Source of the DNA: Oligoflexia bacterium
GTDB lineage: Bacteria > Bdellovibrionota_C > UBA2361 > JAFLCA01
Reading direction: 5' to 3'
Assembly (NCBI GenBank): GCA_019694465.1
Contig: JAIBBV010000005.1
Span: 13,767 to 77,766, forward strand
DNA length: 64,000 nt
The position numbers and the translations under genes are program-made. The notes beneath the pieces are model-generated. The model had not been told where the DNA came from. It did no database searches and was given only the letters and a program-made list of their open reading frames with translations. Position 1 is the stretch's first letter, and each line of letters begins with the position of its first letter. Shown one piece after another: positions 6,836 to 27,173 of the stretch.

Positions 6836-9172
6836 CTAGCTTCTAGCGCCTGAGGCTCGACTGTGTGATTTTTTATCCTCGTCGCGGTAGTATGAGTGAT
6901 AGTAACGGTTATAGTAATAGTAATCGCCGCCAGTCACATCGACATCATTCAGCACCACCCCAAGCAGATTTGCGCCAACTGCCTTTAAACGGGCACGAGC
7001 ATCTGAAATAACGCGACGCGGGGTGGATGCCCCCTTTACCACCAAGACTACACCCTCAACGTAGCGTGAGAGAATCACTGAGTCCGTCACCGGCAAGATC
7101 GGTGGGGAGTCAATTACAACATAATCGAAACTAGCTGAAAGTTGGTCAATCAGTGTGGCCATCTCGAGCGAACCTAGCAACTCGGCGGGATTGGGTGGAA
7201 TTTGTCCACTAGGAATAACTGTAACCCTTGGCACAATATCCTTTAGGGCCACTTCTTCCCAACTCATTTGCCCAGTAATTACGTCGACTAAACCCGGCAA
7301 GTGGGAGTCGAGCTGAAAATGGCGGTACATACTAGGGCGGCGGAGATCGGCGTCTACTAGGATCACCCGACCGCCAGCGCTAGCCAAACTTACAGCTAGA
7401 TTTATTGAAGATGTCGTTTTCCCTTCCGACGACTGCGCTGAAGTTACAAGTAAAGTGCGCGGAGGTTCACCAGCGCGCGATAGCAACAATCCAGTGCGGA
7501 TTGTTCTATATGCCTCAGCCGCTAAAGACTTGGGGGCCTGAACGAATACAATCGGATAAGCCGATTGGGCTGGGTCATACGGAATAATCTCACGCGACCC
7601 ACTGGACTTTTTAGTGCCCTCCCGGTCCAAACTCTCAGAATTTTCTATGGTAAAGGATGGAACTACGCCAAGATTTGGCAGACGTAAAAGCGACTTTACC
7701 TCCTCCGGTGTCTTGACCGTATTGTCCAGGTAGTTCAAAACAAAGGCCGCTAAAACGCCCGCACAAAGACCTGCGATTAGCCCCAAGACCAGTATGATAA
7801 ACTTCTTGGGATGACTAGGTGCTGTTGGAACGCTGGCATAGTCCACTACTGAGACGTTAGAGGCATTGCTCTCAACCGCTAAAGAGGTCTCTTTAATTTG
7901 CTTTAAGACATTGTCAAGCAACTCGCGCGTTGTAGTCAGCTCGCGATTAAGAATATTGTACTGCACTTCCTTTTTCGATAATTCGAAAGCACGGCTCTTC
8001 TGCTGCTCAAGTTCCTCCTTAAGATTCTTCTCTTCCTCTGCTGCCGCTAGCGCCTTGGCCTTTAGTCCAGATACTATTTGCTTACGTTGGCCATCAATCG
8101 ACTGCTTAATAGAATCAATCTGTGACTTGAGCTGCTGGATTCGCGGGTAGTTTGGTGTAAACTTAGCGGAAAGCTGTTGGTACTCGCCTTCAAGCTTAGC
8201 TAACTCAGCTCGCATTACCTGCAGTGACTGGTCGTCATAGCCAGCCGAGCGAGTGCCTAGTGAACTCTGAGCTTCCTTGAAAACATTCTCAGCTTCAATG
8301 CGTTTAGCAGTGGAGTCGGTTAGCAGCTTATTCAGCTGAGACATCTTCTGCGCCGTAATATTTTCGTCCTTATTAAGGGCAACGATACTGTTAGCCTCGG
8401 CGTAATCCGCCATCTCTCGCTCTAAGTCTGCTACTTTTTCGCGGAGCTCATCAGCCTGACCACGCAAGAACTGAAGACCCCGCGACTGCTGCTCAATACG
8501 ATTGGAGCGTACCCAATCGATATAGGTAAGCGCATGCTTGTTGGCGATAAGAGCAGCAAGCTGAGGAGATCCTGTCACTGCCTTAATCAATACAAGCGAA
8601 GTCCGGCGAACTGGTGCAACTTCAACTGCATCTAAGTAGGCCTTGATAGTCCCAATTGGGGCCTTATATCCTGCAAGAGAGTCTAACTCAGGCGCAGCGT
8701 CCGCTGAACTAATATCGTCGGAATGCCTACCAAAAAGTCGCTTAAACAAACTTTCGCGCTTCTTGCCCTCAACTCCACTTCGGATAGCGCTATCTTCGAG
8801 CACCTTGTCAGCTAACGAATAGCTGCGAATTTCCTCCACTTGAGTTTCTAGATAGTTTGACTCCTTGCTCTTCTGCTGTAGCAAATCTTCAATCTTAGTA
8901 GCAGTGAGCACCGGCTCATAAGTGCTAATCCGGATCTTACTCTGCGCCGTATACATTGGTGTGGCTGTGAAAGCATACATTGCAGCTAGCGCCGCGCCGA
9001 CCAAGGTGAGCCCAACAATAATAGAGCGGTACTTAAACACCAATCGCCAGTACTCACGCAACTGCACTTCGTTATGAGGACTATCGATTCCTGAGTCGTG
9101 CAGGGCCACGTTTGTAGAAGGCAAATTGCCTGGCAGGCGTCGAACTTCTGTGCTGGGAGTAAAATCGCTCAT
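6836..9172 (-). CDS. wzc: Polysaccharide co-polymerase / tyrosine autokinase (Wzc/GumC family)
   Basis: Two TM segments flanking a coiled-coil; Walker A SAQSSEGKTT, DADLRRP, VIDSPP; C-terminal tyrosine cluster YYYYNRYYHSYY. Start may be 9196. Confidence 0.95.
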   Translation of the reverse strand: MSDFTPSTEVRRLPGNLPSTNVALHDSGIDSPHNEVQLREYWRLVFKYRSIIVGLTLVGAALAAMYAFTATPMYTAQSKIRISTYEPVLTATKIEDLLQQKSKESNYLETQVEEIRSYSLADKVLEDSAIRSGVEGKKRESLFKRLFGRHSDDISSADAAPELDSLAGYKAPIGTIKAYLDAVEVAPVRRTSLVLIKAVTGSPQLAALIANKHALTYIDWVRSNRIEQQSRGLQFLRGQADELREKVADLEREMADYAEANSIVALNKDENITAQKMSQLNKLLTDSTAKRIEAENVFKEAQSSLGTRSAGYDDQSLQVMRAELAKLEGEYQQLSAKFTPNYPRIQQLKSQIDSIKQSIDGQRKQIVSGLKAKALAAAEEEKNLKEELEQQKSRAFELSKKEVQYNILNRELTTTRELLDNVLKQIKETSLAVESNASNVSVVDYASVPTAPSHPKKFIILVLGLIAGLCAGVLAAFVLNYLDNTVKTPEEVKSLLRLPNLGVVPSFTIENSESLDREGTKKSSGSREIIPYDPAQSAYPIVFVQAPKSLAAEAYRTIRTGLLLSRAGEPPRTLLVTSAQSSEGKTTSSINLAVSLASAGGRVILVDADLRRPSMYRHFQLDSHLPGLVDVITGQMSWEEVALKDIVPRVTVIPSGQIPPNPAELLGSLEMATLIDQLSASFDYVVIDSPPILPVTDSVILSRYVEGVVLVVKGASTPRRVISDARARLKAVGANLLGVVLNDVDVTGGDYYYYNRYYHSYYRDEDKKSHSRASGARS

Positions 9173-11211: not shown

Positions 11212-12557
11212 TGCGCGCCCTCCCCCTTAGAATACACTTTTACGAGGCTCGCCAACTCATTTCCAAATGTTCGAGCTCGAGATGAGCTTGCGAAGTTAAC
11301 CTTCCAATAGCGAAAAGTGTCAGGCGGTGGATGGATGGCGACAATGTAGCGTCGTCCAATTCGATACGACTCAAGTCGCGATTCATTTTCGAGCTCCACC
11401 CACTGTTGGTTATCATTGCTAGCAAAAAGCTTCACCAACGACATGGACAGGTTTGAAGTCTCGTTGCGCCCCTGCAACTCGACCAAGATAACTCTATGGT
11501 TATCTGGAACAAAAAAGCCGATCGAAGAGTAGAAATCGTCGAAATTACGCTCGCCGATTCGATTCCAGCCAACCAATGGTGATTTATGGGGACGCGTATC
11601 TGACTCAGCAAATGTACGAATCACTGGCACCTCAGAGAGGCTCTTCCTCTCAGTTAGATAGGTGGCGATCGGTTTATTCCCCACCTCAGCGAAAAGACTA
11701 GCTAACAATGAATCAATCTTTTGTCTCACGGGAGAGGAGACACCCGCGTTAAGCAGTCCAAATAAGCGCTGTTGGTGCATTTCTTGGGGAATCGCTCCAG
11801 AGGTATGTCCATCCTCAGCTTCGGACAGGGCCTCCATTTGCATACGCTCAAGGGTCCTAGTAAAAAGTTCCTCTGACTGAGGATGTTGGCGTTTTATCCG
11901 TTGCGTCCATTCAACAATTTGAGGGAATCGTGCGGGCACGACTGCCGCCAAATCCTCACCGCTTTCGATCTGCCGACCTATGTACTCGCGCTGCGAAGGC
12001 GTGGTGACTTCACCTAGCGTCAACGCCTTACGATACAATGCGAAGGCCTGGGCGCGATCACCAGCCCACTGCGAAATCAGGCCAGCTGAAAAAAGCACCC
12101 CCACGTTGCTGGGCTCAAAAGCTACTGCAGAGTTCATGGCAGCCCTAAAATTACCTTGGGTCAATGGGCGCCCACACTCAAGGCTTTCACCTAGGGTCTG
12201 ACGAACGTTGGCCCAGTTCATCAAGAGCGCACCATTGCGAGGCGCCCGACGTAAGGCCTCACCACCATGCTGCAGGGCCTCACATAACAAAGCGATACGG
12301 GTATCGGCGTCTTTTTCGCTTTCTGCCTGGAGGCGCAGTGCATCAAACAGGCGCGCCTCTCCATCGGCAGTTTTAACTGAATAGGAATTGGCCCGGCGCA
12401 AGCCTTCCACGCTTCGGGCGAGCGCGCTCTTCCCTAGCTTCATCCCACGCAAATCATCGATGTCGGAAATTGAGCGGGCGTGCTGCCATTCCAATAGCGA
12501 AAGGCAGGCCAACGCGGCGCTAAGCAAGGCTATTAAAGGGTAAGCAATTGACTTCAC
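11208..12557 (-). CDS. Hypothetical membrane-anchored/secreted protein: TPR-like helical region plus C-terminal discoidin (F5/8C)-like domain
   Basis: Hydrophobic N-terminus; Ala-rich helical repeats (ALRRAPRNG, AQAFALYRKAL); C-terminal LFASNDNQQWVEL...FRYWKVNF. ATGA overlap with the downstream gene. Confidence 0.7.
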   Translation of the reverse strand: MKSIAYPLIALLSAALACLSLLEWQHARSISDIDDLRGMKLGKSALARSVEGLRRANSYSVKTADGEARLFDALRLQAESEKDADTRIALLCEALQHGGEALRRAPRNGALLMNWANVRQTLGESLECGRPLTQGNFRAAMNSAVAFEPSNVGVLFSAGLISQWAGDRAQAFALYRKALTLGEVTTPSQREYIGRQIESGEDLAAVVPARFPQIVEWTQRIKRQHPQSEELFTRTLERMQMEALSEAEDGHTSGAIPQEMHQQRLFGLLNAGVSSPVRQKIDSLLASLFAEVGNKPIATYLTERKSLSEVPVIRTFAESDTRPHKSPLVGWNRIGERNFDDFYSSIGFFVPDNHRVILVELQGRNETSNLSMSLVKLFASNDNQQWVELENESRLESYRIGRRYIVAIHPPPDTFRYWKVNFASSSRARTFGNELASLVKVYSKGEGAQ

Positions 12558-21572: not shown

Positions 21573-22061
21573 TTAGCCTACCCTTGCTCTAGACCTTCGA
21601 TTTTTGGCTCGGTGAGAACGAACAGCTGCCGCCCAACCTCCACTTTTCATCCAAACCCGTAGCTCCCCAGAATCCGGATGCCGCGCCTCTAGCGCCTTAA
21701 AGCTTGGGCCATGCCAGCAGCGCCTACCTTTGCGCCTTTCTACCCCCTCCTCAAGCACTGCATGGCACATTTCATGAAATATCACGGCCTCTAACCAGCG
21801 CCTATGCTCCGTCGGTTCTAACTCTTGGGCTAGGGTTACCTGTCGTTTTCTAACACAACAGGCGCCCAGAACTCGCTTCTGGCGCCTTCTACTCCATAGG
21901 ACAGTATATTCTGTGAGGTGCTTAACTTCAGGGAAATAGCTTTGAGCCAAACCGCTCCAAATCTCTATTAGTACTTGCTCTCCTGTTGCCCTGAGCGCCA
22001 TGGGCCTAGGGCGGGACTTAGGCCGAAAAATTTGGAAAAAAGATAGCTGAAATGGCGACAT
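21573..22061 (-). CDS. SprT-like/YgjP-like zinc metallopeptidase domain protein
   Basis: VIFHEMCHAV (HExxH) followed by WHGPSFKALEA. Confidence 0.8.
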   Translation of the reverse strand: MSPFQLSFFQIFRPKSRPRPMALRATGEQVLIEIWSGLAQSYFPEVKHLTEYTVLWSRRRQKRVLGACCVRKRQVTLAQELEPTEHRRWLEAVIFHEMCHAVLEEGVERRKGRRCWHGPSFKALEARHPDSGELRVWMKSGGWAAAVRSHRAKNRRSRARVG

Positions 22062-22172
22062 ACTTTGATTTTAGACTTAGGCCGCTTACAGCAAAAGTAG
22101 CAAAATCCGGTAGCTTTAATTTGACTACCGTCAGAGCTGGCGATATTTTGAAGGCCCCAAGTTGTGCTGTAG

Positions 22173-24551
22173 TTGTCTCCCATGGATTCACAGATAAATC
22201 TTAAACGTACCACCGATTTTTGGCCTCTAGACCAAGGCGTCGAGCGTGAATTAAGACCGACGCATCAACTTGTTTTTAGCACCAGCAACCCAGATAAATT
22301 AAGAGAGATAGCTGCCGCTCTTGGCCTGCCAGAAGAGGAGGTGCGCGGTCAAAAGTTAAGAGAACTCCTTGAGCCTCAGCCAGACGATTCAGTGCGGAGC
22401 CTTATTGAATCGGGTAGATACGAGCAAGCCTCAGCTGCAATTTGTGGGCAGAAGGCTGTTCAAGCGTGGAAGATCAGCGGAACCGGAGTCTGTGTTGAAG
22501 ATACCGGGCTATACACAGAAGCCTTACGTGGATATCCAGGGCCAGAAATTAAAAGCTGGAACCACCCGGACAACCTTGCAACTCTTTGTGATCTGGCCAG
22601 CAATAGTGGAAGACGAGGCGCTACCATGATTGTAGCCTTTGGTTTCTATCCAGGATTTGGCGAGCCGCAAGTTAGGTCCGCTGTTTTACGTGGAGAAATT
22701 GCAGCACAGCCTCGCGGCACCAATGGCTTTGGCTTCGACTGCATCTTCGTACCCGACCCAACCCTGCAGGCGAAACTGTTCCCCGGCAAGCCAGCTAGGA
22801 CCATTGCTGAAATGGAGCCTGGCGAGAAGGCACAACTAAACCCACGCACCAAAGCACTCACTTCTATTGCACAACAGCCTTTTGAGTTCGCCTCTAATCC
22901 GCCTAGAATATTGTTACCTACCGCAGCGGCTAAAGTTGCGATTAGAGATTTAAAAACTAAAGTTCCGTCGGAGCATCGAGAGAAAGTACTCGCGGCATCC
23001 ATTACATCTGTCGAACAGCGCCGCCAGCGCATCTTCGCTGATATGCGTAGCGAGACGGGAAGAAAGACCCTTGTGCGAACCGGAGAGGTCTCTGAACGAG
23101 TAATGGACGATGACATTACGGATGTTCGTGAAAGGATACTCCCGTTCGACATGGGGCGCTTGCGAATCATTTCAAGGGATTCTGGAGCCCGCGCTATCGC
23201 GCACTCAGTTCACAGGCTAGAACTCTTAAATCACCCGTTCGCCCTAGAGGCCATGCTGCGGCAGGAGCGGCTGGGCTACGTAGCTGTTGGTGGCAAGAGT
23301 GTTCCGCCTTTAGATGCAATGAAAGAACGCCGTCAAGCCGCAACCTACGACGACTTTAAATTAGGCTTCGAAGGAGCGACAGAGGGCTCCAAAAACCAAG
23401 AGCGCGTTATTGCCATTTTGGCGGGCGGTATGGGTTCTTGGACAAGCACGCGTTGCATCACCTACCCGATTTTAGGGGCCTCAGTTCCGTCAATGATATC
23501 GGCCTGGTCGCTTGCAGAGGGCGCACTTTGCGGCATACCAGGATTTACCCCCTGCGACAGCTACTGGTCCGATCATACAGCCCAAATTGAAATGTCGCGT
23601 GCTGCTTTGGCTTATATCGACAGCCACCCTTTCATTAGCACAGGTCGCTGGAACGATGTTGTTCTAAGTAACGGAGAAACAGTAAAGGACTTTGTTCTTA
23701 GGCGTGCCCATAAAATGATCGGGGCTACTCTTAAAGCACGCCCAGAAACTATCGCTGACATTGCCGACCAGTTCAGGGCCATTGGTGTCTCAACTTTCCG
23801 TGTTTACGAGGCTGGCGCGACTCGCCCGTTGCAAGCGGCAGTAAGAGTGCTGGCCGAGCATTATCGGGGTGATTCTAACTACATTATGTGGGCCGGTCAG
23901 GTAGGTGGAGTGGCCCAGGCAAGAGAATGCGTCGACGCGGGAGCGCATGGTTTAATAGTGGGAGTTGGAGACGGCGCTCTTTGTAGCACAGCTGACGTAG
24001 CTGCTCTGGCTGGTAACAACCCGCTTAAGATTTATGAAATTGTCGCAGCTCGCTTGGGCATCCCTGTCATTGCTGATGGGGGCGTCGGCAGCAGGGCTCC
24101 AGTAGCGCATGCGCTTGGCGCAGCTGGTCGTATGATGGCCGGAAGCTTGAGTGGTGGAACAGTTTCCCTACGCCTTGTTAAATTTGCCAACGGCGATGGC
24201 GAAGTTTATGACCCGGAGTATGGGGAGGCTAGCGCACCAACCAAGCATCGTGGTGGCCAAGTCGATGCCCTTGGTGAGGCCATGGGAGTGGAAGGCATAG
24301 CTGCTAGGAGACCAGTAGACTTTCTTCGCCCTACGCTTGCCGATAGAGTTTTTGCATCGCTTCTCGGAGTTGCCAAGTCGCTACGTTTTGATGGCTTAAG
24401 CAGCCTAGCTGAGCTTGTGCACCAGGCCCAGCCGAATCTATGGGTACCCACTGGAGCTGCACTTCGCGCCGGATCTCCACATCACGATCATCCGGAGACA
24501 AAGGATGTGCCACGTCCATTTCAGCTCAACTTTGAGCCCCTCTCTTTGTAG
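22173..24551 (+). CDS. Fusion: N-terminal HAM1/RdgB (ITPase-like) pyrophosphatase + ~150-aa linker + C-terminal IMPDH/GMP-reductase-like TIM barrel (no CBS pair)
   Basis: HAM1 motifs FSTSNPDKLREI, VEDTGLYTEALRGYPGP, GFGFDCIFVP, TIAEM...EK. IMPDH-like motifs ATYDDFKL, YPILGAS, AGQVG, VDAGAHGLIVGVGDGALCST (Cys604), IPVIADGGV, MAGSL, VEG. Confidence 0.85.
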   Translation: MSPMDSQINLKRTTDFWPLDQGVERELRPTHQLVFSTSNPDKLREIAAALGLPEEEVRGQKLRELLEPQPDDSVRSLIESGRYEQASAAICGQKAVQAWKISGTGVCVEDTGLYTEALRGYPGPEIKSWNHPDNLATLCDLASNSGRRGATMIVAFGFYPGFGEPQVRSAVLRGEIAAQPRGTNGFGFDCIFVPDPTLQAKLFPGKPARTIAEMEPGEKAQLNPRTKALTSIAQQPFEFASNPPRILLPTAAAKVAIRDLKTKVPSEHREKVLAASITSVEQRRQRIFADMRSETGRKTLVRTGEVSERVMDDDITDVRERILPFDMGRLRIISRDSGARAIAHSVHRLELLNHPFALEAMLRQERLGYVAVGGKSVPPLDAMKERRQAATYDDFKLGFEGATEGSKNQERVIAILAGGMGSWTSTRCITYPILGASVPSMISAWSLAEGALCGIPGFTPCDSYWSDHTAQIEMSRAALAYIDSHPFISTGRWNDVVLSNGETVKDFVLRRAHKMIGATLKARPETIADIADQFRAIGVSTFRVYEAGATRPLQAAVRVLAEHYRGDSNYIMWAGQVGGVAQARECVDAGAHGLIVGVGDGALCSTADVAALAGNNPLKIYEIVAARLGIPVIADGGVGSRAPVAHALGAAGRMMAGSLSGGTVSLRLVKFANGDGEVYDPEYGEASAPTKHRGGQVDALGEAMGVEGIAARRPVDFLRPTLADRVFASLLGVAKSLRFDGLSSLAELVHQAQPNLWVPTGAALRAGSPHHDHPETKDVPRPFQLNFEPLSL

Positions 24552-25385: not shown

Positions 25386-25684
25386 CCCTGCGCGAGTGAG
25401 TTTTGACAAAAACTCACTCGCAATAGCAGGGCCATCTTGGCGAAGCCAAGTGGACCAGTAGAGAACACAAACAACGGACAAGTGGCGACACTACTTAGCG
25501 TGCGTAACAAAATGTAAGCCTATTTTGATGGCCCTACAGAAGGGATAGCGGTGATCTTGAGGCAATTCCGCATTTGCCCCCTCGGGGCTTGGGGTTTACT
25601 CGTCGTCTGCGGCTCGACTTGGCTACGCCAAGATCTCGCTCGCCCAGCCTCATCCATTTTTTGTCAAAAATGAATGAGGCTGGG
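25386..25684. repeat. REP/MITE-like element bounded by inverted hairpin pairs
   Basis: Left end: perfect 13-bp hairpin gcgagtgagtttt-gaca-aaaactcactcgc (25392-25421) and cttggc-gaa-gccaag. Right end, inverted: cttggc-tac-gccaag and cccagcctcat.cattttt-tgtc-aaaaatg.atgaggctggg (25643-25684). Confidence 0.65.
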
Positions 25685-25766
25685 TTCATATGGAAGGGTC
25701 ATCGGAACTCGCGTTGTAGCTTGTGCCCTTAGTCAGTGATTTCTTGAATAATTGTAGCACTGGACA

Positions 25767-27173
25767 CTAGCGCCCTGACTTTTTAGCCCTTTCGAAAGCC
25801 TCAATCGCAATATCACGTTCATGCGAGTGTTCGACTATTGGGAGCGGATATTCTCCAAAACGTGTCGCATCTGGCTCAGCCAATGAGTGAATCTGCTTGG
25901 CACTGGCTGATGCGAGTTCTGGAATCCAGCGCTTAATGTAGGTACACTGTGGGTCAAACTTGCCTTGCTGCAACCAAGGGTTGAAAACCCTGAAATAGGG
26001 CTGCGCGTCACAGCCAGTGGAAGCAGCCCACTGCCAGTTTCCATTATTTACGCTCGGGTCATAGTCAGTAAGGTGACGCGCGAAGAAAGCTTCGCCCTTT
26101 CGCCAATCTATATGCAGGTCCTTCACCAGGAAGGAGGCTACAATCATACGAACCCGATTGTGCATAAAGCCTGTAGCAAGTAACTCACGTATGCCGGCAT
26201 CCACGATTGGGAAACCAGTGCGGCCTTCACACCATGCCGAGAAGTGATCCTGATTATCACTCCACTCAACTGCACTAAAAGCGGGATTAAAAGAGGACTG
26301 AAAAACATGCGGAAAATGCCAAGCGATATGGGTGAAGAAATCTCTCCAGTAGAGTTCCCTTACCAATGTGGAGTCCCTGCCCAGCGTAGCTACTAAACTC
26401 CAGTAAACCTCGCGAATAGACAGGGTTCCAAACTTATGATGGGCGCTAAGCAGACTAGTAGCAGAAAGCGCCGGAAAATCACGCTCTTGGTTGTAGTTAT
26501 TCAGGCCCGCGGCACGCTCTAGGAGTTTCAGACCTTGGCTGCGCCCGCCAAGTTGCAGCCTATGCGGCGCAGCTTGTTTAGGGAGGTAAGATTTAGCCAG
26601 CTTTCGCTTAATACCCTTTGGCGCATTCGCCAATTTAAACGTTTTGGGCAAGGTTAAGCAGCGCGCGACGGCTTCTTCGCTAGCGCGCTTATAGAATGGA
26701 GTAAAAACTGTGTAAGGCCTACCATCTTGCTTCGAGAATTTACTTGGCTCTAAAAGCAACGCATCAGAGTAGCTGTGTAGAGTAGCGCCTACTTTTTGCA
26801 GTTCCGCACTCAAATTGCGATCACGCTCACGCGCGAAGGGAGTATAGTCCTTGTTTACGAAAACATCTTTGCAGTCCCATGACAGAGCAAGCTGCGCGGC
26901 AACAATCTCGCTAGAACCTTCCATGACTAGCAGCTCTGAACCTAAGGCTTTAAGTTCTGCGCTCAATTCTTCCAAGCTCTCGACTAAAAAGGCTAAGCCG
27001 TTGACTGATCGATAGGGATGATCTGAGATCTGACGTGGGTCGAATATAAACACCGGCGACACCTGGTCGCACTGCGTAAGGGCAGCATGTAAGGCGGTGT
27101 TATCATGCACGCGCAAATCTCGTCGAAAAATTACAATCCCTCGCTGGATATTCTTCATCTTGCTATTCAACAT
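25767..27173 (-). CDS. phrB: Deoxyribodipyrimidine photolyase (class I CPD)
   Basis: IFRRDLRVHDNTAL, YTVFTPFY, SLLSAHHKFGTLSIR, ELYWRDF, WCEGRTGFPIVDAG, GFMHNRVRM, NNGNWQW. Confidence 0.96.
   Translation of the reverse strand: MLNSKMKNIQRGIVIFRRDLRVHDNTALHAALTQCDQVSPVFIFDPRQISDHPYRSVNGLAFLVESLEELSAELKALGSELLVMEGSSEIVAAQLALSWDCKDVFVNKDYTPFARERDRNLSAELQKVGATLHSYSDALLLEPSKFSKQDGRPYTVFTPFYKRASEEAVARCLTLPKTFKLANAPKGIKRKLAKSYLPKQAAPHRLQLGGRSQGLKLLERAAGLNNYNQERDFPALSATSLLSAHHKFGTLSIREVYWSLVATLGRDSTLVRELYWRDFFTHIAWHFPHVFQSSFNPAFSAVEWSDNQDHFSAWCEGRTGFPIVDAGIRELLATGFMHNRVRMIVASFLVKDLHIDWRKGEAFFARHLTDYDPSVNNGNWQWAASTGCDAQPYFRVFNPWLQQGKFDPQCTYIKRWIPELASASAKQIHSLAEPDATRFGEYPLPIVEHSHERDIAIEAFERAKKSGR

Follow-up and report, generated by a model that had tools for sequence, protein, structure and literature searches.

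We analysed a 64,000-nucleotide stretch of an Oligoflexia bacterium genome (hereafter the window) that encodes, at 22173-24551 on the forward strand, a single protein joining a Ham1/ITPase pyrophosphatase domain to a barrel of the inosine monophosphate (IMP) dehydrogenase (IMPDH) and guanosine monophosphate (GMP) reductase (GMPR) type. The best explanation of our results is that this open reading frame (ORF) specifies a two-enzyme protein of an undescribed but conserved module, in which a specialised Ham1 domain is paired with a third lineage of IMPDH/GMPR barrel and which serves purine salvage or interconversion. We give a somewhat better than even chance to this explanation in its general form, a catalytic two-step salvage module that is not an IMPDH and in which a purine nucleoside triphosphate (NTP) would be converted to the monophosphate (NMP) and then undergo chemistry at C2. 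The initial annotation of the gene had considered the fusion new, and our searches of the literature and of source annotations for a Ham1 + IMPDH-type fusion likewise found no description of one.

The ORF encodes 792 residues from a TTG at 22173, or 789 from an ATG at 22182, which is the start used in the public gene call; no obvious Shine-Dalgarno sequence was seen at either the TTG or the ATG. Its layout is as follows.

22173-24551, plus strand: whole ORF, stop codon included, comprising Ham1 domain, helical linker and IMPDH/GMPR-like barrel (ORF call, Pfam, AlphaFold2).
22269-22874, plus strand: Ham1/ITPase domain, residues 33-234 (full Pfam profile, motif alignment, clade membership).
22875-23333, plus strand: helical linker, residues 235-387, without a Pfam match.
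23334-24521, plus strand: (beta/alpha)8 barrel of the IMPDH/GMPR type without CBS domains, residues 388-783 (alignment, AlphaFold2, Foldseek, tree).

Pfam Ham1p_like (PF01725) matches residues 33-234 over profile positions 1-185 of 186 (E 2e-28; score 100 bits, cut-off 22.5). Pfam IMPDH matches residues 548-770 and covers no more of its profile than positions 127-345 (E 4e-17; score 62.7 bits, cut-off 25.6). Aligned with E. coli GuaB and GuaC using MAFFT, the barrel is colinear from T[YF]DDF through the C-terminal His. An AlphaFold2 model of the fusion based on an 87-sequence alignment reached a predicted local distance difference test (pLDDT) score of 95.6 and a predicted template modelling (pTM) score of 0.91; an earlier model based on four sequences had a barrel pLDDT below 50 at residues 593-780. 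Foldseek aligned about 400 columns of the later model to CBS-deleted IMPDH catalytic domains, with a target-normalised template modelling score of about 0.85. Neither Pfam nor the alignment revealed a CBS pair in the fusion, where an insertion of about 50 residues occupies that position. These results agree with the initial annotation, which had begun the barrel at about residue 385 ('ATYDDF') and noted the lack of CBS domains, and the extent of the stand-alone relatives described below (about 335-770) agrees with it as well. Sequence matches in the PDB are to IMPDHs and ITPases, with a weaker one to Kongming KomB, and the NCBIfam equivalogs for RdgB, IMPDH, GMPR and GuaB1 were all matched, each far under its cut-off. 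Taken together, the profiles and alignments indicate that both domains are complete, with their predicted catalytic residues intact.

The family is rare, amounting to a few dozen clusters at 50% identity among the 1.84 billion representative proteins covered by an exhaustive profile search, with about 25 such clusters for the fused architecture and about 40 for stand-alone barrels. This search returned further close fusions and about 14 proteins of 758-811 residues with the same two-domain layout. A word-indexed search found three further full-length proteins (47-57% identity) on independent contigs from different samples, one of them in G060, a Bdellovibrionota metagenome-assembled genome (MAG) of the window's family, which assigns the window to Bdellovibrionota; metagenome scans added four further full-length loci, and a Ham1-pattern scan of genome contigs recovered mostly generic Ham1 loci, with L009 as the sole true fusion. 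Pfam Ham1 was matched by 23 of the 25 aligned long relatives. The stand-alone relatives, about 40 proteins of 500-600 residues, match the query at positions 335-770 or so only, and 35 of 39 match Pfam IMPDH. Because the last 50 or so residues of the linker (from about residue 338, with a conserved 'LLNHP' at 351-355) are also present in these stand-alone proteins, this segment is part of the barrel family. No member carries an informative name; automatic annotations read 'non-canonical purine NTP pyrophosphatase', 'IMP dehydrogenase' or 'hypothetical'. The window's source is a MAG of 93 contigs, and a mis-assembly or frameshift joining two genes could in principle produce an apparent fusion. 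However, numerous assemblies made independently, from a variety of samples and sources, contain the same architecture at 34-57% identity, making mis-assembly untenable, and the linker is both conserved and, in the AlphaFold2 model, confidently folded. We therefore leave practically no room for an artefact.

All of the Ham1 motifs tested (T/S-x-N-x-x-K, the E-x-Q metal ligand, the K, (E/D)-D-T-G/S-L, F-G-[FWY]-D and S-x-R) are present in the window protein, with TSNPDK at residues 37-42, LLEPQ at 65-69, VEDTGL at 108-113, GFGFD at 185-189 and N-P-R at 223-225. Pfam and the motif alignment thus agree with the initial annotation, which had described one uninterrupted 792-residue ORF with a complete Ham1 motif set, and the full catalytic set is kept in 23 of 25 fusions. 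The domain resembles RdgB/ITPA/Ham1 enzymes (PF01725) in its full-length Pfam match, in its catalytic motifs and in its PDB relatives (6wwd, 1v7r and 2mjp), and its phosphate, metal and base-pocket motifs are the same as those of housekeeping copies. It differs from them in belonging to a separate clade of barrel-fused or barrel-adjacent proteins only, in falling under the RdgB equivalog cut-off (TIGR00042, 71.4 bits against 145.35) and in a single module-specific conserved residue, Cys139 (22587-22589, in helix 129-142), found in 90% of module versus 4% of housekeeping copies, which may serve at an interface, in redox chemistry or in regulation. A change from S-H-R to N-P-R was considered as a module-specific specificity switch and rejected: the housekeeping Ham1 of the window genome has S-M-R, the module form at this site is N/S-[PAM]-R, and the position does not separate the clades. 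In genome G044 the fused Ham1 is the sole Ham1 found, consistent with ordinary ITPase-type specificity.

For the barrel, the GuaB and GuaC sequences of the annotated E. coli MG1655 record served as references, and residues were counted over 51 family members. The sites that matter most are these.

23799-23807, plus strand: Arg543-Val-Tyr545 (family motif F-R-x-Y), at the position of the dinucleotide-site 'I-D-S-S-H-G' (alignment).
23982-23990, plus strand: catalytic-loop Cys604-Ser605-Thr606, equivalent to GuaC Cys186/Thr188 (alignment; Cys in 51/51, Thr or Ser in 51/51).
24072-24092, plus strand: A-D-G-G-V-G-S ribose/phosphate-binding motif, residues 634-640, including Asp635 (Asp or Glu in all family members).
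24291-24296, plus strand: Glu707-Gly708, equivalent to GuaC Glu289-Gly290 (alignment; Glu in 50/51, Gly in 51/51).

Overall identity in the family is 20-30%, yet the Cys, Thr and Glu are essentially invariant. TYDDF (residues 391-395), AGQVGG (574-579) and GVGDGALCST (597-606), the last fitting the IMPDH loop G-x-G-x-G-x-x-C-[ST]-T, are also in place, and the IMPDH-like motifs quoted in the initial annotation could all be found. The dinucleotide-site Asp (Asp248 of E. coli GuaB, also present in GuaC) is replaced by Tyr or Phe in 49 of 51 members, with an Arg at -2 in 49 of 51, and residues near the base have changed as well (G-E-A-S for G-M-G-S and A-x-N-N for G-V-G-x-P-Q). The flap preceding Glu707 is 23 residues long in the window's clade, versus 21 in GuaC, 28 in GuaB and 32 in clade B, to which L090, L095 and L112 belong. 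The Arg-Tyr dyad of the IMPDH flap is absent from all 51 members: both positions are gaps in 37 clade-A, stand-alone and fusX sequences, and clade B has residues other than Arg and Tyr. In IMPDH, this dyad lies on a mobile flap and activates water for hydrolysis of the E-XMP* (enzyme-xanthosine monophosphate) intermediate, and replacing Arg418 reduces hydrolysis about 1000-fold (PMC2525682). GMPR lacks the dyad, has a truncated flap and depends for its activity on Cys186, Thr188 and Glu289 (PMC2525682). With the triad kept and the flap short and dyad-less, the barrel would follow GMPR rather than IMPDH catalytic logic, with a rebuilt cofactor site. Its scores fit neither family: it reaches 42.9 bits on the IMPDH equivalog TIGR01302 (cut-off 481.5) and 21-48 bits on the best GMPR models (cut-offs 344-675). 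By family membership, then, the barrel is neither an IMPDH nor a GMPR.

Separate phylogenies of the two domains, a check suggested in the initial annotation, placed each half of the module in a well-supported clade of its own. In the maximum-likelihood tree of Ham1 proteins, one clade (ultrafast bootstrap 98, Shimodaira-Hasegawa approximate likelihood-ratio test 96) takes in every one of the 18 fused Ham1 domains, 8 of 9 module-adjacent Ham1 genes and no housekeeping copy. In the barrel tree, 31 of 31 module barrels fall into one split (100/99) on a long branch, which excludes E. coli GuaC, the IMPDHs of E. coli and the phylum, and two further IMPDH-like classes found in the phylum. Both trees intermix fused and split forms, indicating that fusion or fission happened repeatedly, which is a classical signature of functional partnership.

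The two other classes, 'c160' (about 505 residues) and 'x' (about 560-590 residues), reach the cut-off of no curated family. Both are extended at the N terminus by helices and combine a short flap with a module-like Y-x-G-E-A-S motif, and they are found at G061:C37:40185-41201, G059:C260, G086:C6 and G115:C4 (L175-L178) and at G073:C82 and G098:C56 (L183, L184). In the family of the window, no genome has both c160 (G061, G059) and the fusion (G000, G060). A divergent 585-residue PurA-like paralogue (L187, G000:C56:6623-8380, minus strand) lies about 5.4 kb upstream of the window start; it scores 208 bits with Pfam in two stretches and adjoins AAA ATPase and ABC-transporter genes, and the canonical PurA is encoded separately on contig C67. 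PurA-like paralogues of about 585 residues occur in 5 of 12 module-bearing versus 9 of 112 other genomes (Fisher p=0.004), and in 9 of 20 genomes with any non-canonical IMPDH-like gene versus 5 of 104 (p=1.5e-5), both values being uncorrected for phylogeny.

Gene neighbourhoods connect the two halves where they are encoded separately. We pooled the 125 neighbouring proteins of 20 non-redundant loci in one Pfam search, and the commonest families were Ham1p_like (8), Pribosyltran (5), IMPDH (4), A_deaminase (4), GMP synthase (GuaA, 4) and PNP (3). A Ham1 gene stands beside the barrel in 8 of 9 independent stand-alone loci; it adjoins the barrel immediately, usually in divergent orientation, in L092/G104, G096, G093, G083, G114 and G092/G088, and lies two genes away in L112. 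Several loci are purine clusters. L095 reads A_deaminase-IMPDH-GuaA-fusion-PRTase (phosphoribosyltransferase)-Ham1, all co-directional; L090 reads Ham1 / fusion / GuaA-x-IMPDH-A_deaminase; L112 reads A_deaminase-IMPDH-x-GuaA-barrel, with its Ham1 gene further along; and L097 reads GuaA-IMPDH-A_deaminase-PNP / barrel / PRTase. A canonical IMPDH is thus encoded in the same operon as the module in all four. Module-bearing genomes usually hold one or two extra Ham1 genes elsewhere. These observations support a functional link between the two halves, the link being purine salvage. The initial annotation had connected them on the grounds that the product of the first domain belongs to a ligand class of the second, and both the neighbourhoods and the Ham1 clade favour such a connection.

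One reading of the link drawn in the initial annotation is a route from inosine triphosphate (ITP) through IMP to xanthosine monophosphate (XMP), in which the Ham1 domain converts (d)ITP to IMP and the barrel, as a true IMP dehydrogenase, oxidises IMP to XMP with NAD+, coupling channelled sanitation to guanylate synthesis. IMPDHs are indeed the best matches of the barrel in both sequence and Foldseek comparisons; the N-terminal T-[FY]-D-D, Cys loop, D-G-G, E-G and C-terminal His segment are colinear with those of GuaB (EC 1.1.1.205), the catalytic Cys and Thr are kept, and a Thr-Glu relay can sustain slow E-XMP* hydrolysis in an IMPDH without Arg418 (PMC2525682). Unlike GuaB, however, the module barrel has no Arg-Tyr dyad, no NAD-ribose Asp (Tyr or Phe in 49 of 51) and no CBS pair, its flap is short in the window's clade, and it lies outside the IMPDH clade and below the equivalog cut-offs. 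It also coexists with bona fide IMPDHs: L090, L095, L097 and L112 each encode one in the module's own operon, and the window genome encodes one at another site, so that a second IMPDH would be redundant. The IMPDH step of this reading is thus improbable. Apart from the fusion, the window genome encodes a Ham1 protein and a bona fide IMPDH, which scores 795 bits on NF005493 (cut-off 585), and no third IMPDH/GMPR-family gene was found in it; of the rdgB, guaB and guaC counterparts about which the initial annotation had asked, an rdgB-like Ham1 and guaB are therefore kept.

GMP reductase (GuaC, EC 1.7.1.7) is the closer functional parallel in several respects. The module barrel shares its (beta/alpha)8 IMPDH/GMPR fold, its lack of CBS domains, its association with purine-interconversion genes, its triad (Cys604/Thr606/Glu707 for Cys186/Thr188/Glu289) and its short flap without the Arg-Tyr dyad. 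In contrast to GuaC, it sits outside the GMPR clade on a long branch and far under the NCBIfam GMPR cut-offs, has Tyr for the dinucleotide-site Asp together with an invariant Arg at -2 and 'AxNNP' for 'GVGxPQ', and adds N-terminal helices containing a conserved H-P, a C-terminal His segment resembling that of IMPDH and an obligate-looking Ham1 partner.

A two-step scheme can be drawn from these features. The Ham1 domain would hydrolyse an ITP/XTP-type (XTP, xanthosine triphosphate), and possibly also a GTP-type (GTP, guanosine triphosphate), purine (d)NTP to NMP and pyrophosphate, and the barrel would bind the purine NMP through its kept ribose/phosphate motifs. Cys604 would then attack C2, assisted by Thr606 and Glu707 beneath a short GMPR-like flap, to form a covalent E-XMP*-like thioimidate, and this intermediate would be resolved without Arg-Tyr-promoted hydrolysis of the IMPDH type. 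The most likely outcome would be a GMPR-like reductive or other C2 substitution that returns the nucleotide to IMP or the canonical pool. As the dinucleotide site is remodelled (Asp to Tyr, with the invariant Arg), the cofactor, and even the need for one, is uncertain.

The two reactions of the IMPDH/GMPR superfamily share one covalent intermediate, and to our knowledge they are the only two chemistries known in it. GMPR-like reductive deamination would suit the triad and the flap and would also supply the 'missing enzyme' of the A_deaminase-IMPDH-GuaA-PRTase clusters, and we tentatively consider GMP to IMP as the specific reaction of the barrel, at well under even chances. A third reaction type in the superfamily is possible on similarly tentative terms: the Cys would act at C2 of a purine NMP supplied by the Ham1 partner, using another cofactor or no cofactor at all. 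Examples, equally tentative, would be the loss or replacement of a C2 substituent in a non-standard purine, or an interconversion of GMP and XMP that needs no cofactor. A comparable pairing is known from the phage 2-aminoadenine pathways, where an NTP pyrophosphatase (MazZ) makes the NMP for a purine-modifying enzyme encoded alongside it (PurZ). The pairing logic would be the same as in the module, but the families differ (MazG and PurA-like versus Ham1 and IMPDH/GMPR-like), and the context of the module is cellular, not viral.

Several observations weigh against a two-step salvage module. The barrel scores far below all the curated NCBIfam cut-offs for IMPDH, GMPR and GuaB1, and with the dinucleotide-site Asp replaced, use of NAD(P)H is not assured. 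In the window and its closest relatives, the fusion lies outside any purine operon. Two metagenomic members, P0023 (805 residues) and P0029 (808 residues), have a Ham1 domain without catalytic motifs and an intact barrel Cys, so that sequential catalysis is not obligatory in all members. Genome G124 (about 1.4 Mb), which contains L097, has a stand-alone barrel in a purine cluster and only one Ham1, of the housekeeping type, so the Ham1 partnership is not universal; no PurA hit was obtained in this genome, which would make a plain role from GMP through IMP to adenosine monophosphate pointless there. Finally, IMPDH/GMPR-type genes of about 340 residues without CBS domains, and the c160 genes, never co-occur with the module, but the expected overlap is only about one; this phyletic complementarity with GMPR-like genes is not significant, and neither class reaches a curated GMPR cut-off. 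G124 itself looks salvage-dependent, converting adenine to guanine nucleotides only. In G092 and G088, ORFs of 825-833 residues (L139, L140) have a Ham1-like domain without catalytic motifs and keep the barrel Cys, and an intact module-type Ham1 gene adjoins them.

The degenerate Ham1 domains of P0023 and P0029, presumably inactive on an intact barrel, raise the question of whether one half is regulatory, with Ham1 acting as a nucleotide-sensing allosteric stand-in for the CBS/Bateman module or the barrel acting as a sensor for the pyrophosphatase. The absence of CBS domains throughout the family and the fixed inter-domain arrangement implied by the pTM would suit such a role. However, the metal and phosphate residues of Ham1 are conserved in 23 of 25 fusions and in the adjacent split genes, and a near-invariant Cys/Thr/Glu at such low overall identity is unexpected for a pure sensor, leaving a regulatory half quite doubtful.

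Alternatively, the module might process a C2-substituted or damaged, non-standard purine nucleotide, with Ham1 removing the triphosphate and the barrel regenerating a canonical NMP. Candidate substrates, on the same footing, would be nucleotides of 2-aminoadenine, isoguanine/2-oxo-adenine or 2-aminopurine, and their deoxy forms. Ham1 enzymes act on non-canonical purine NTPs (PMC9016069). The C2-attacking Cys is kept while the cofactor site and base-proximal residues are remodelled, the module Ham1 forms its own lineage and occurs alongside housekeeping Ham1, and the PurA-like paralogues of about 585 residues are enriched in module-bearing genomes. A GMPR role would, moreover, make no metabolic sense in G124, and the hosts, Bdellovibrionota and small-genome salvagers, live on foreign nucleotides. 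Nevertheless, this proposal is entirely inferential and no substrate is directly indicated; the base-pocket motifs of the module Ham1 are the housekeeping ones save for one Cys, and the PurA-like gene is not adjacent to the module but 28 kb upstream of it on the window's contig. We consider it unlikely, and continue to favour the two-enzyme salvage module in its general form.

A role in anti-phage or nucleotide-depletion defence, for instance as an effector related to Kongming KomB, was also weighed, the initial annotation having listed a phage challenge among its checks. The Ham1 domain has a weak match to KomB (8zsg, E 2.7e-8) and the gene is patchily distributed in the phylum. This match is weaker than those to ordinary ITPases, though, neither the protein nor any of its neighbours matches a PADLOC model, the viral contigs scanned contained no family member, and the neighbours are housekeeping or purine-salvage genes with no defence islands among them. 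Nothing here ties the gene to phage defence, and a defence effector is highly improbable.

The barrel family is present in 12 of 124 genomes and 7 of 64 genera of the phylum; the fused form occurs in G000, G060, G053, G044 and, truncated by a contig end, G120, and the other carriers have split genes. Around the fusion in the window's clade lie housekeeping genes (BamA, LolCDE-like, alpha/beta-hydrolase, SprT-like, SIMPL and photolyase). Upstream of the fusion lie the following.

21573-22061, minus strand: SprT-like gene, a divergent neighbour kept in the closest clade only; it gives context, with no functional link indicated (locus maps).
22062-22172, no strand assigned: 111-bp divergent intergenic region shared with the SprT-like gene, with a weak sigma-70-like match at 22121-22149 (plus strand).

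An Rfam scan of 22062-22172 gave no match, and hence no riboswitch or leader. The divergent SprT-fusion pair is also found in L005 and, as a relic, in G061, a sister species of the same genus that lacks the gene. The relic comprises the last 39 or so codons (L185, G061:C69:56000-74000, at 8685-8801, plus strand), is 64% identical to residues 756-794 of P0002 (E 2e-10) and occupies the syntenic site beside the divergent SprT-like gene (7887-8552, minus strand), the whole block being inverted relative to the window. This syntenic relic indicates that the ancestor of the genus had the gene and that G061 lost it through an internal deletion. The gene is therefore dispensable and patchy, but not a recent mobile acquisition, so that the accessory origin suggested initially holds for its distribution and not for its history. 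Nor does the gene stand directly next to a repetitive extragenic palindromic (REP)-like element, as initially described: the hairpin-rich intergenic element, about 300 bp long, is at 25386-25684, separated from the fusion by the SIMPL gene. Rfam gave only a sub-threshold miRNA-like match to it (E 0.048, 25643-25691). The window (25767-27173, minus strand) and L092, the P0011 locus (11723-12556, minus strand), each carry a DNA photolyase gene two genes downstream of the module, and MPG glycosylase and SprT-like genes occur near other members (L009, L005); this proximity may reflect chance or a weak DNA-damage theme.

A third deep lineage of the IMPDH/GMPR superfamily, with its nucleophile kept and its cofactor site rebuilt, tied to a dedicated NTP pyrophosphatase, is a well-defined target for enzyme discovery, and recognising it would correct the current automatic annotations of the family. 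If the reaction is plain GMP reduction, the barrel would still be a GMPR that is not orthologous to the known ones and has a new partner for regulation or channelling. If a third reaction type holds true, the module would represent an unrecognised purine sanitation and recycling route in predatory or salvage-dependent bacteria, possibly together with the PurA-like paralogues. More broadly, the module could show how purines that are aberrant or at the triphosphate level are made usable again by bacteria that live on foreign nucleotides, such as Bdellovibrionota and small-genome salvagers.

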